This document shows positions 431 to 36,006 of a stretch of 64,000 bases of DNA, piece after piece. Position numbers and translations under genes: made by a program. Source of the DNA: a virus. The stretch lies in IMG/VR virus record IMGVR_UViG_3300005534_000001, positions 1 to 64,000 of that record; one strand, written 5' to 3'. Positions within the stretch are counted from its first letter, which is position 1, and every line of letters starts with the position of its first letter. The notes beneath the pieces were generated by a model that was not told the origin of the DNA, ran no database searches, and saw nothing but the letters and a program-made list of their open reading frames with translations.

Positions 431-500
431 TGCTTCTCCTTCTGAAAGTGTCCGCGCCGTGGTCTTGGAGGACAACGGCGCGATTGGCTCGCGCTGTTTA

Positions 501-1214
501 TCACGGCGCGGACTCTGTTTGATCTTCGCCGGTTACGGCATCCAACTTGCCCAGCCACACGTTGAGCGTGTCCAGAAATTCATTGAGGTCGTACTTCTGT
601 TGCTCTTGGCCTTTGAGCGAATCAGTTAAGTCTCTCAGGAACATCGTGTCAATGCCCATGAGTTGCTTGCGCAAATCGGCATAGGTGTCAATCTGGAGCG
701 CCTGGATACGCAGACCTAACTTGATTGCCTCAATTCCTGAGAAATGGAAGCCACGCTTGATGAACTTACGCAGACGGTACAACGAGCAAATCGGATATTC
801 GGCTTTGATGTTGAAGACTAACCGGCGCTGGGCCAAGTGTTGGAAGAAATCTTTGCCAAAGATAAATCCGTCATTCCAATCCAATCCACCCTGGCAGATT
901 GTGAAATCAAATCCTTCAAGGACTTCTGCTGGGGTGCGGAGAACGCACTTAATTAACTGGACGCGATGGCCATCTAAAACGACCGAACACGCGGAATCGG
1001 TATGGACTGTTTTCTCGTCTTGCGGACAGGCCAGCAATGCTTGATCGAGGACTTTCTTGTTCGGAAAGAAAAGGTCGAAGTCATTGATTCGCGCTGAAGA
1101 GAACACGCTGGTTATTGCACCGCCAGCCAAGAAAGCCCCATTGTGCTCCATGAGTGAACGGACTGTTGGCCCCATTTGATCTTTGAGAAATGATAATTCT
1201 CGGTAATAGTTCAT
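501..1214 (-). CDS. pol-beta-superfamily nucleotidyltransferase (polyA polymerase/CCA head-domain-like)
   Basis: LAGGAI..NDFDLFF (GG + DxD) and FDFTICQ motifs. ATG 1214 overlaps the upstream stop (ATGA). Confidence 0.75.
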   Translation of the reverse strand: MNYYRELSFLKDQMGPTVRSLMEHNGAFLAGGAITSVFSSARINDFDLFFPNKKVLDQALLACPQDEKTVHTDSACSVVLDGHRVQLIKCVLRTPAEVLEGFDFTICQGGLDWNDGFIFGKDFFQHLAQRRLVFNIKAEYPICSLYRLRKFIKRGFHFSGIEAIKLGLRIQALQIDTYADLRKQLMGIDTMFLRDLTDSLKGQEQQKYDLNEFLDTLNVWLGKLDAVTGEDQTESAP

Positions 1215-7145: not shown

Positions 7146-7175
7146 ACGATAAGCGGATTGCCGTATTTATGTCAA
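7146..7175 (-). promoter_or_regulatory. sigma70-type promoter, probably leaderless transcript of the HTH gene
   Basis: TTGACA-18 nt-TATCGT, 9 nt before ATG 7136, no SD. Confidence 0.55.
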
Positions 7176-9037: not shown

Positions 9038-9046
9038 GTGTCCAAA

Positions 9047-9439
9047 TTATGGCCGTGGCGGAGGCGTGTACCCTGGATCAAAACGCTGCCCATTGGCGTT
9101 CACGTAGCTTTCGCCTTCGAAGTGACCGCCCCAGTAATCGGGAGCACACGCCCTGATCATGCCAGGAGTCGGACGGAATCCGCGCTTGTCGGATTTCAGG
9201 AAATATTTAAACCCTTCACGAATCTGAGTCGGGGTCAAGTCTTCCAGACATTCCATCCACAACTGGGCCAGTTCCGGAGTGAACTCCATTGCGTACTGAG
9301 TCCCTATTGCCATCAGAATCTCGCCCGTTGCCTTGATTCGCTCCAAGTTTTCGGATTGCTGCTTCTGTAGCTGCGTTGGCGTTTGCGTAATGTCGCTTTT
9401 CTGCTGTTGTTGGGTATTGCCCGTTTCCATTTGTTCCAC
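9047..9439 (-). CDS. probable helicase loader/inhibitor (G39P / lambda P-like)
   Basis: LWMECLEDL...FRPTPGMIR motif; lies between initiator and dnaB. Confidence 0.6.
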   Translation of the reverse strand: MEQMETGNTQQQQKSDITQTPTQLQKQQSENLERIKATGEILMAIGTQYAMEFTPELAQLWMECLEDLTPTQIREGFKYFLKSDKRGFRPTPGMIRACAPDYWGGHFEGESYVNANGQRFDPGYTPPPRP

Positions 9440-10276: not shown

Positions 10277-10937
10277 TTACCCTTTGGCCTCGCTTCGCAA
10301 CTTACCGCCATTAGCCATCCGCACACGATCCACAATGAGCAGCGCTTGGGCCTCAATAAATTTCAGGTTGGCTTTGTCGCCGTGATCTCGAATGTAATCG
10401 GAAAGTGTTTGTGCTGGGCTTGCTATTTGCTGAAGCGGAGATAAGGGGGCCGATCTTTCTTGCACTTGTTGAGAGTCCGTCTTCGGCTCTTCTCCCGAAC
10501 CTAAACAGCGTTCGCAAATATCAACACAATTACCGAGTCCATGCCATTCGCAACGATCATCGGCAGATTCCATTTGAGTGTTGCATAGATGGCACAGTTG
10601 CGGCCATTGTTCAGGAGTCTCGCGCTCGTAATCAGTGAGCCACTGCGACAATTGGTAATCATTGGCCGCGTCAAAATTGGCGAAGACTATAGTGGGGGAG
10701 TTTCTGAGTATGCGTCTGATTTGTTCGAGTGGAGTATTAACTTCCAAAGCAATCCTCACAATCTTCATCGTGACAATGAAAAGTCAGACTGATATCGGCT
10801 GCCGTCTTGCCGGGATTACGCGCTAATACTGCTGCTTCAGCTGCATCGCAATCGGAGTGACGGTTACAGGAGCGCACCCGTTTAGGAGTTTCGATGTGCT
10901 CCCATGAATCAAGGGGTTCAATGAGATTGGGATTCAT
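10277..10937 (-). CDS. two Cys-rich hypothetical ORFs (10277-10768, 10737-10937)
   Basis: CxxC motifs; AAGGAG RBS before 10937. Confidence 0.6.
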
Positions 10938-11212
10938 ATGCTAGTTCGTTTACTCCTTCCCTCCATTTGAGCGGAGGGCTGCGAAGGTAGGATGTGAATT
11001 CCTGCGGGTGAAAACTTCTCACTGGCTGGATCTGCCAACACGATGCCGCAGGAAACTTGATTGTTGATGGATTGTAAAACCTTTAAGACAAAAGGAATCT
11101 TGCTCGAATTGACGAGGCGCGTATCGGTCATATTTTAGCCGTATTCGCTTTCGGTTACGGCGGCAGGGCTAGTATTTCTACCAGCCCCACCTATGACCTA
11201 CGGCGAATGAGA
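10938..11212 (-). ncRNA. candidate structured 5' leader / regulatory RNA of the replication operon
   Basis: GGUCAUA/UAUGACC encloses a GGGCUGGUA-GAAA-UACUAGCCC hairpin and a GCCGUA/UACGGC hairpin; UUCCUGCGG/CCGCAGGAA stem; CCCUCC/GGAGGG hairpin next to the RBS. Confidence 0.55.
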
Positions 11213-11215
11213 AAA

Positions 11216-11245
11216 ACATTACAGTAACTCTCCGCATCCTGTCAA
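11216..11245 (-). promoter_or_regulatory. sigma70-type promoter of the replication operon
   Basis: A-tract, then TTGACA-18 nt-TAATGT. Confidence 0.6.
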
Positions 11246-11254
11246 CTTATTTTT

Positions 11255-12506
11255 TTAACGCTCTGGCGGCTTCAGAAGATCATGCAGGATGCCGATGAAT
11301 GCCATGCCTTTGGCCGTGGGCTTGCCTTTACCGTCCACTTCGACCGGGAAGATGTTCACGCGCAACCAGTTCGTTAAAACGTCTCTACGGCGCTTTGTCA
11401 TGGCTGTTCCGCGCTTCTCCGCTTCGCGCTTGGTCTCAATCGGTCCGATGAGTTTTGCCTGGGAGACGTGGTACAAGCGATATCCAGTGTGCTTACTCAT
11501 CGTCCTCCATTCGCTTCAATCTCTGTTTCTGTCGGATGACGCTCTTTCTGTGATCTTCTTGGCGAGCTTTCAATTCGCGCTCGTGGGCGCAATCTGAGCA
11601 CCATTGACAAAACGGCTTGCCGTGCTTACATGTTTTGCAATCGCAGTAATTCGGGCAAAGGCTCATAAGTCTCCCTAGTCGCCGCCATTTTTTCTCGCGG
11701 GATATTCAACGTCACGGTTGCCTTCGAAATCCGCGAAGAGTGTACGCGGAAATATCCCATGCCAGCTGGCTATATCTGGGTCGCATTCGCTGCATAGACG
11801 CGGGAGATTGGCGTCACGAAATGTAGACCAGAAATTAGTGAGGGCGGTATTGTCGATCACATGGCATTTCTCGCATTCAAATAGCGGCATTACAAGTCTC
11901 CCCACAATGGCCCTTCTTCAGCCATAAACTCTCCCAGATTGGCATCTCGGATAATTCTGACCTCATCTGCTGAGGCTGGCCCAGGAACGCGAGAAATAGG
12001 GCGTTCTGACGGCTTAGGGAAGCATCCAGGGCATCCGGAAAGTCCGCATGGGCACTCTTCAGGATGTTTTAGTCCGCTCACCGTTTGGCCTTTGGTCGGC
12101 ATCCCACAATTTTACAGTTAACATCTTCTTTGTGGTCTCCGATGTGCGATGGCCAAGGATGCAGAGACATTTCTTTTGGCACATTCTCATTGCCCTGCAT
12201 CATTTTCACCTTGGCGTGTTTGCAGTGCATAGAGCATTTGTAACAACCGTGCGGGCATTCGTAAATCCGCTTCCCGCCCTTGCGCTTGAACTCTTTCGAG
12301 TACTTTAGCCAGCAACCGCATCGGCCCATTGGCGCAGAGCAGCAACAGCACTTAAACTCAACGCGATCTAGTAGACTTTCGATGGGAGACGGCATGTATT
12401 CAGTCAGCCGCTTTCTTGGTCGGCCACGATTCCATCTCTCCCATTCGTTCAAGAGTTTGGCCTCTGCGTTCGTCTGAGAGTTGAGGATTAAGGACAAGCC
12501 ACTCAT
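11255..12506 (-). CDS. cluster of short, often Cys-rich hypothetical ORFs (11255-11500, ~11493-11666, 11675-11890, 11890-12102, 12078-~12396)
   Basis: Head-to-tail ORFs with RBSs; no family recognised. Confidence 0.5.
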
Positions 12507-21675: not shown

Positions 21676-21685
21676 TGCAGATAAG

Positions 21686-21714
21686 AATATACAGACATGA
21701 TATTTAGATGTCAA
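21686..21714 (-). promoter_or_regulatory. sigma70-type promoter of the recombination operon, near-leaderless
   Basis: TTGACA-17 nt-TATATT, 10 nt before ATG, no SD. Confidence 0.7.
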
Positions 21715-21810
21715 GATGTAAGTGCAAATAAAAACCGGCGAATCAAGCCCGACTCGCCGGTCATTCTCGCATTGAATATCCCGAGAGTAGATATATTCAG
21801 GCCAGATGTT

Positions 21811-25043: not shown

Positions 25044-25112
25044 ACCTTAAACCAGCGAGAAGCGATTGTCAACAAAATAATTGTTGATTCTTTTTGGAGC
25101 GTGTGCAATACT
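25044..25112. promoter_or_regulatory. back-to-back divergent promoters
   Basis: Minus: TTGACA-17-TAAGGT. Plus: TTGATT-17-AATACT, 8 nt before ATG 25121, no SD. Confidence 0.6.
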
Positions 25113-35036: not shown

Positions 35037-35064
35037 ATATTACCGGAAGTAAATCTATTGTCAA
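35037..35064 (-). promoter_or_regulatory. sigma70-type early promoter
   Basis: TTGACA-16 nt-TAATAT. Confidence 0.6.
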
Positions 35065-35675: not shown

Positions 35676-35703
35676 ACATTAACACATGTGTGCCCATTGT
35701 CAA
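35676..35703 (-). promoter_or_regulatory. sigma70-type promoter, leaderless transcript
   Basis: TTGACA-16 nt-TAATGT with extended -10 TG, 7 nt before ATG 35668. Confidence 0.65.
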
Positions 35704-35730: not shown

Positions 35731-36006
35731 TTGAGGGGGTTGAGGGAGGGGATGGGCGCTGGCCATTGGGATGTCCTCTGCGGGAAGATTGCTGATTTCT
35801 ACTTCCCGGATCAGAGGCTAGTTGTTGAAATAGATGGCGGATACCACTATTTCAAGAAAGGCCAACGCGCAAAAGACAGGGGCAGGCAAAGGGTAATAGA
35901 GAAAAGCGGACGCCGCGTTATCAGATTCGACAATAAAGACGTCATTAATTTCCCAGAGCATACAATTGCGGCGATACTGAAAGCTCTTGGGCCAGCCTTT
36001 GAGTAG
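35731..36006 (+). CDS. DUF559 (Vsr-like) endonuclease, possibly N-terminally truncated
   Basis: ADFY...RLVVEIDGGYH...D..R...I...G..VIRF.N. Confidence 0.75.
   Translation: MRGLREGMGAGHWDVLCGKIADFYFPDQRLVVEIDGGYHYFKKGQRAKDRGRQRVIEKSGRRVIRFDNKDVINFPEHTIAAILKALGPAFE

Follow-up and report, generated by a model that had tools for sequence, protein, structure and literature searches.

Structured RNAs encoded in phage operon leaders are exemplified by the c4 RNA of phages P1 and P7 and the CI RNA of P4. Stable structures at the 5′ end of an mRNA are also known as stabilisers, such as the hairpin of the E. coli ompA 5′ UTR, the 5′ stabiliser of the early RNA of phage SP82, and the leader of T4 gene 32. 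They are simple hairpins or a pseudoknot, and their effects have been measured. In replicon control, leader-peptide coupling is used by tap/repA of IncFII and by repY/repZ of IncB and IncI-alpha. The put sequences of HK022 and the nut sequences of lambda are antitermination RNAs located upstream of replication genes. The T4 gp32 and gp43 are replication proteins that act on their own mRNA.

The locus analysed here belongs to virus record IMGVR_UViG_3300005534_000001, which is complete, has a length of 92,527 bp, and carries direct terminal repeats (DTR). The stretch of DNA that was analysed, called the window below, is its first 64 kb (positions 1 to 64,000). On the minus strand, the gene order is ORF81, the leader, the Cys-rich gene (Cys66), ORF163, the gene of a DUF1376/primosomal-type protein, and the gene of the DnaB helicase; the leader does precede the replication operon. 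The features of the locus are as follows.

ORF81 (81 aa), ending at 11255, minus strand: the ORF upstream of the leader
11216 to 11245, minus strand: sigma-70-like promoter as read from the sequence, with TTGACA (11245-11240), an 18-nt spacer, and TAATGT (11221-11216)
11117 to 11204, minus strand: domain 1 (D1), an 88-nt three-way junction of predicted fold, with pair probabilities of about 1.0
11204-11117, minus strand: predicted outer helix P0, which extends D1 to these positions
11198-11192 with 11132-11126, minus strand: predicted helix P1, 7 bp, GGUCAUA/UAUGACC
11191-11162, minus strand: predicted helix P2, GAAA-capped, 9 bp, extendable to 13 bp with three G-U pairs
11161-11138, minus strand: predicted helix P3, 6 bp, GCCGUA/UACGGC, with a small capped tip
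11055 to 11116, minus strand: linker, A/U- and CA-rich, weakly structured (z −0.9 for 11125-11055)
10999 to 11054, minus strand: domain 2, a predicted 9-bp stem UUCCUGCGG/CCGCAGGAA with an 8-nt junction strand and two short hairpins
10953 to 10986, minus strand: CCCUCCG/UGGAGGG hairpin with an outer CUUC/GGAG stem, which pairs the SD-like GGAGGGAAGGAG (10964-10953); called the GGAG hairpin below
10934 to 11131, minus strand: ORF65 (P0001), a 65-codon ORF of doubtful coding status that covers most of the leader and whose stop overlaps the Cys66 start (ATGA)
10737 to 10937, minus strand: Cys66, the Cys-rich gene of 66 aa (CNRHSDC...FHCHDEDCEDCFG), the first conserved gene of the operon, with homologues P0003-P0005 and loci L004-L017
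7715 to 10768, minus strand: the downstream operon genes (Pfam, PHROGs), which are the next three
10768-10277, minus strand: ORF163
10271-9216, minus strand: DUF1376/primosomal-type protein
9037-7715, minus strand: DnaB helicase

Tyrosine and serine recombinases are absent, as the complete DTR genome of 92.5 kb gave no Phage_integrase or Recombinase domain. A virulent or non-integrating lifestyle would agree with this, and a plasmid-type prophage is conceivable; the genome thus gives no sign of a lysogeny or immunity setting. No tRNA or tmRNA was found. The second gap of the operon, at 9038-9215, is unstructured (z −0.4). The start region of ORF163 (10745-10768, minus strand) is ambiguous, since the gene may begin with the ATG at 10768, giving a 32-nt overlap with Cys66, or with the TTG at 10747, which gives an 11-nt overlap and has a well-spaced GAGGA upstream.

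The TAATGT (−10) box of the leader promoter is separated by 279 nt from the ATG of Cys66 at 10937. A strict consensus scan missed this promoter because its −10 box matches the consensus at just three of six positions. The pattern TTGACA-N16-19-TAnnnT was found at 9 sites in the 64-kb window, with 1.5 expected. Eight of the nine are on the minus strand, mostly in gaps, and several have −10 boxes of the TAATGT or TAATAT type. As judged from the sequence, the leader promoter is plausible and would belong to this recurrent, six-fold enriched type; we infer a transcript start near 11209. At the promoters 7146-7175, 21684-21714, and 35676-35703 (all minus strand), the −10 box is followed by an ATG at a distance of 8-10 nt, which points to early mRNAs without a leader. 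The promoters 25044-25072 and 35037-35064 are followed by leaders of 40-45 nt with a GGAG SD. Apart from the replication operon, the early messages of the phage appear to be leaderless or to have short leaders. The first 90 nt after the other promoters of the type are not unusually structured (z −1.9 to +0.7, minus strand). None of these promoters has a long structured leader, and such a leader is therefore specific to the replication operon.

Some additional elements were noted around the promoters. The stop codon of ORF81 lies between the arms of an inverted repeat of 11 nt (about 11231-11241 and 11285-11295; core GCAUCCUG/CAGGAUGC, 91% complementary), which shares positions with the −35 box and the spacer of the leader promoter and may serve as an operator or as a read-through hairpin. 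Two structured 90-nt windows, 21701-21790 (z −5.0) and 35771-35860 (z −4.8), both on the minus strand, sit just upstream of two TTGACA promoters and may be terminators or insulators between transcription units. An antisense promoter-like site at 11109-11136 (plus strand) was rejected as being at chance level, with 9 such sites found and 9.0 expected in the scan.

A first-pass annotation, made from the sequence, had described a structured leader of about 280 nt after a TTGACA promoter on the minus strand. The analysis bore this out: the leader has 279 nt and folds with a predicted MFE of −93.7 kcal/mol (z −4.9), with z −2.1 for the opposite strand. The helices named in that annotation were predicted with pair probabilities of 0.9-1.0, and these include all stems of its three-way junction, with a GAAA hairpin and a GCCGUA/UACGGC hairpin. 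In D1, P0 and P1 close P2 and P3, and the junction strand is UAAAA. The predicted MFE of D1 is −46.3 kcal/mol (z −6.0 to −6.3), and the MFE structure accounts for 47% of the ensemble. The sense strand (z −6.3) exceeds the antisense strand (z −3.4) and is 9 kcal/mol more stable because of the three G-U pairs in P2, which fits a feature at the RNA level and not at the DNA level. Among 8,522 windows of 90 nt from both strands of the 64 kb, D1 ranked second by GC-corrected MFE and tied for first place by shuffle z (−5.7). In the case of random 90-nt windows, 3% lie below z −3 and several reach z −5, so the tail of the background is heavy and extreme folds are not rare in this phage. On these predictions, the statistical excess of the leader is mostly in D1, and the fold is exceptional mainly over the first 88 nt. 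The 5′ flank AUUCGCCGUA has two alternative pairing partners, GCGAAU and UACGGC of P3; these pairings cost 8.9 and 28.4 kcal/mol.

With the 5′ stabilisers, the leader shares a very stable fold a few bases from the (here inferred) 5′ end of an early or middle phage mRNA, followed by a weakly structured stretch. In contrast to those elements, the fold here is an 88-nt three-way junction predicted from the sequence. The likeness to HK022 put and lambda nut consists of a promoter-proximal RNA with two adjacent hairpins, one of them GAAA-capped, at the head of a long operon that includes replication genes. Unlike in these systems, no boxA/boxB arrangement and no downstream terminators that need overriding were detected, and the closing helix P1 of D1 is without counterpart in put RNA.

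The second multibranch domain with a 9-bp closing stem, also annotated earlier, was recovered in the prediction as domain 2, where UUCCUGCGG/CCGCAGGAA encloses the two hairpins. It is less exceptional than D1: the sense strand has z −3.4 and the antisense strand a similar value, its pair probabilities are 0.6-1.0, and it lies outside the top 20 windows of the 90-nt scan. The claim of a hairpin overlapping the SD region stood in part. The CCCUCC/GGAGGG hairpin is present together with its outer stem, but by itself it is not significant (z −1.4), and the GGAG ends far from the start codon. The SD-like GGAGGGAAGGAG is 86% paired and ends 15 nt before the Cys66 AUG, with a mostly unpaired spacer, whereas the recognisable SDs of the phage lie 5-10 nt from the start codon. 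Opening of the Cys66 start region (−18 to +12) costs 6.4 kcal/mol, compared with a median of 10.0 kcal/mol for 66 genes. Since the hairpin is not significant and the start is more open than average, translational control at this point would be weak at best.

The overlapping ORF65 was examined as a possible gene. No homologue was found in a word-indexed protein search, and no Pfam or PHROG family was matched. An exhaustive search of 1.84 billion representatives gave a single match, to a 1,510-aa T9SS Ig-repeat protein, which was rejected because its score is inflated by six nearly identical repeats worth about 25 bits apiece. The exact ORF65 sequence is absent from a collection of 15 billion proteins in which its three neighbours are present, and it was not called by the gene finders of the source pipelines. 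Its Markov coding score of −0.079 bits/codon falls in the range of shadow ORFs, and 99% of true-gene chunks score higher; the genuine Cys66 gene likewise scores low. The AUG of ORF65 is located in the 3′ strand of P1 and is 99% paired; it lacks an SD, and opening the start costs 17.4 kcal/mol, a value exceeded by just 8% of genes. The AF2 model consists of a single helix (pLDDT 61, pTM 0.23), and the language-model recognition score is low. Of the leaders shuffled with dinucleotide preservation, 3.4% had an ORF of 65 codons or more that ends at the ATG, and 11.5% had one anywhere on the sense strand. At loci L004 and L007, the start of the Cys-rich gene likewise overlaps (ATGA) an upstream coding ORF; the upstream partners in relatives are unrelated to ORF65. 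We also considered a frameshift that would fuse ORF65 to Cys66, and rejected it because AGC-AUA-UGA offers no slippery site and ORF65 does not resemble the N-terminal regions of the longer relatives. On this evidence, ORF65 is more likely untranslated.

Relatives of the leader were searched for in several collections. A blastn search of the leader against 50,697 GenBank phages gave no match, and tblastn of the DUF1376 protein and Cys66 against GenBank phages gave nothing. Protein searches of IMG/VR anchored on ORF163 and ORF81 found no relatives; the DUF1376-anchored search of IMG/VR returned two loci with 51-55% identity, without similarity in the leader. In the case of Cys66, six viral loci (IMG/VR) and eight JGI metagenome loci were obtained, in which the similarity goes no further than the coding part and the neighbouring genes are all different. 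GTDB scans (185,579 prokaryote genomes) with ORF163 and the DUF1376 protein found nothing. When a covariance model built from the D1 sequence alone was run on the genome of the phage and on four complete related phages, D1 itself was the only match; among all fetched loci, the model gave just one match, of 14 bits, on L021. A DNA pattern with P1 forced, run on IMG/VR, also had a single match, at L021 3992-4087 (minus strand), on a contig of a giant-virus MAG. We judged it a chance match, as about one is expected by a rough estimate and the P1 pairing is imposed by the pattern itself. At this site, GGUCAUA pairs with UAUGACC next to an 8-bp hairpin, and the start codon of a gene for a DEAD-box helicase of 385 aa lies inside the pairing. 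In SRA, the stretch was found in a single DNA run, which is probably the source sample, and no RNA run is listed; the contig of the DNA run is identical over the stretch and therefore offers no variants to use. With no leader homologue in any collection searched, there is no covariation and no evidence for selection on the fold.

The Rfam search of the leader, which had been suggested as a check, matched no family: none of the 4,227 models of Rfam 15 reached its gathering score in the window. The best sub-threshold match was the sucC RNA motif (RF01759), at 19 bits (E 0.13-0.29), where the gathering score is 50. It is the sole Rfam model that aligns to D1 end to end (11197-11132), with similar flanking words, but its single hairpin does not reproduce P1 or P3. 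We regard this match as noise because comparable sub-threshold matches occur elsewhere in the genome and in all 14 control genomes; a DNA pattern built from the words shared with the sucC-like match had zero matches in IMG/VR. The C4 family (RF01695, gathering score 45 bits) had no match at the gathering score in the window and none in the leader (E≤10) or in the whole genome. Thus, D1 resembles the c4 RNA of P1/P7 and the CI RNA of P4 as a structured RNA in a phage operon leader, and differs from them in the missing RF01695 match, in having no antisense loops or target repeats, and in the lack of detected lysogeny genes. Its loops are tetraloops (4 nt), which are too short for antisense pairing. 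Complements of the 7-8-nt single strands of domain 2 occur at chance frequency only, with no convincing target complementarity. The proposal of a c4/CI-like RNA immunity system is therefore not supported, given also that no recombinase is encoded. No intrinsic terminator was found on the minus strand from 11245 to 10938, where U4 occurs once, after a weak A/U-rich hairpin of 5 bp; this argues against attenuation, and the attenuation switch proposed earlier did not hold. A search for iterons and direct repeats was negative, which leaves an origin-type DNA element unsupported.

The reading that we prefer, as a tentative one, is that the 279 nt form the 5′ leader of the replication-operon mRNA, act in cis and do not code for protein; in this leader, an orphan candidate, D1 would have a protective or marking role. 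The earlier suggestion of cis-regulation of the initiator and helicase operon thus survives as the best reading, with a structured leader at the predicted place and stripped of its immunity and attenuation analogies. D1 would fold first during transcription, leaving just a short unpaired 5′ tail, and could act as a 5′-terminal protective or processing structure that sets the lifetime of the replication mRNA and hence its dose. An upstream AUG would be buried in it as well. A mild brake on ribosome loading at Cys66 may come from domain 2 together with the GGAG-sequestering hairpin, while the start itself is open. The predicted fold, its statistical excess and strand bias, the position after a recurrent promoter type, and the uniqueness among the promoters of the phage are observations; an effect of the leader on mRNA stability or translation and the non-translation of ORF65 are proposals. 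A non-coding leader is supported by the points against ORF65 as a gene, namely the missing homologues, the absence from gene calls, the shadow-like score, and the buried start. On the other side are the poor −10 box (3/6) and the presence of a 65-codon ORF with an ATGA overlap, which only 3.4% of shuffled leaders provide by chance. If it has a function, the leader would control the dosage of the replication genes at the RNA level, in an uncultured phage lineage without close relatives. The finding is at present one sequence with a strong predicted fold, which can seed motif searches and establishes no new biology. In a bolder form, which is in our judgement quite unlikely, D1 would be the first representative of a new class of cis-regulatory RNAs in phages: a compact sensor or protein-binding operator at the 5′ end of the replication mRNA, gating an upstream ORF coupled to the operon and in this way setting when, or how much, initiator and helicase are made.

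The main rival is a coupled 65-aa upstream ORF, which we consider possible but somewhat unlikely. In such a case ORF65 is real, D1 is its 78-nt 5′ UTR gating the buried AUG, and reinitiation at AUGA couples the translation of Cys66; ribosomes finishing ORF65 would melt domain 2 and the GGAG hairpin, as in the leader-peptide control of plasmid rep genes. The low frequency of such an ORF in shuffled leaders speaks for coupling, as does the ATGA stop/start overlap, present likewise in L004 and L007 together with an upstream coding ORF. In many relatives, moreover, the Cys-rich module is the C-terminal end of proteins of 120-170 aa, so a partner of about 65 aa would fit. The arrangement is like that of IncFII, IncB, and IncI-alpha, where the stop of an upstream ORF overlaps the next start and RNA structure is found there, ahead of replication genes. 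The differences are that the coupled gene in the plasmids is the initiator and here a Cys-rich small protein, and that their leader ORFs have 24-29 codons, compared with the 65 codons here, where translation is doubtful and no countertranscript is supported. Coupling is also opposed by the lack of a credible homologue among the 1.84 billion representatives and of the sequence itself among the 15 billion proteins, by the coding score, by an AUG that is almost fully paired, without an SD, and costly to open, by the poor AF2 model and language-model score, and by the unrelated partners in the relatives.

If the fold has no function, D1 would have arisen by chance, as an extreme case in a spacer that module recombination left behind, for example when the Cys-rich module joined the operon. 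This reading has in its favour that no relatives or conservation were found, that other windows of the phage reach z −5, and that the Cys-rich module occurs in quite different contexts among relatives, which shows module shuffling. We nevertheless hold it unlikely, as D1 ties as the most extreme of about 2,800 independent windows and lies exactly in the longest promoter-proximal gap, the sense strand is favoured, and there are two GAAA-type caps; in addition, phage genomes so compact seldom retain about 280 nt of idle spacer. Alternatively, D1, alone or with domain 2, might be a sensor or operator for a ligand, temperature, or a phage or host protein that tunes the operon, in the manner of the T4 proteins mentioned above. 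The very well-defined fold with two GNRA-type caps and a tight junction would suit this role, as would the possible alternative pairing of AUUCGCCGUA with P3 and the restriction of the leader to the replication operon. Yet no riboswitch or protein-leader family of Rfam was matched, the junction has nearly no unpaired bases for a pocket, the alternative pairings are costly, and neither a terminator nor a strongly occluded Cys66 start is available for a switch to act on, which makes a sensor very unlikely. The release of D1 as a stable trans-acting small RNA seems hardly probable at all. It could be a c4/CI-type immunity RNA, a decoy, or an RNase III processing signal, the last separating upstream and downstream messages. 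D1 is compact and very stable, P1 and P2 can stack to about 20 bp, and no terminator stands between ORF81 and the leader, so that read-through transcripts from ORF81 would carry D1 internally. This proposal is opposed by the lack of a C4 match, the short tetraloops, the chance-level complements of the single strands of domain 2, the absence of an integrase or serine recombinase from the complete genome, and a P1 that is not followed by a 3′ terminator or a CCA-like end.

The Cys-rich module (CNRHSDC...FHCHDEDCEDCFG) itself belongs to no Pfam or PHROG family and was found to be a mobile C-terminal domain at loci L004-L017. It is fused to MazG in L010 and L011 and to a dATP/dGTP pyrophosphohydrolase in L015; fusions of these kinds are among the 120-170-aa proteins that end in the module. 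In its standalone form, it adjoins a UvrD gene in L006 and a ResIII/SNF2 helicase gene in L007.

The most stable 90-nt window of the 64 kb was found at 436-525 (plus strand; z −5.75), at the meeting point of a plus-strand ORF and a minus-strand ORF. It is predicted to form a Y-shaped fold. The 121-nt fold at 420-540 has an MFE of −53.4 (z −3.8) and a 12-bp GC-rich closing stem, and the minus strand is nearly as strong.
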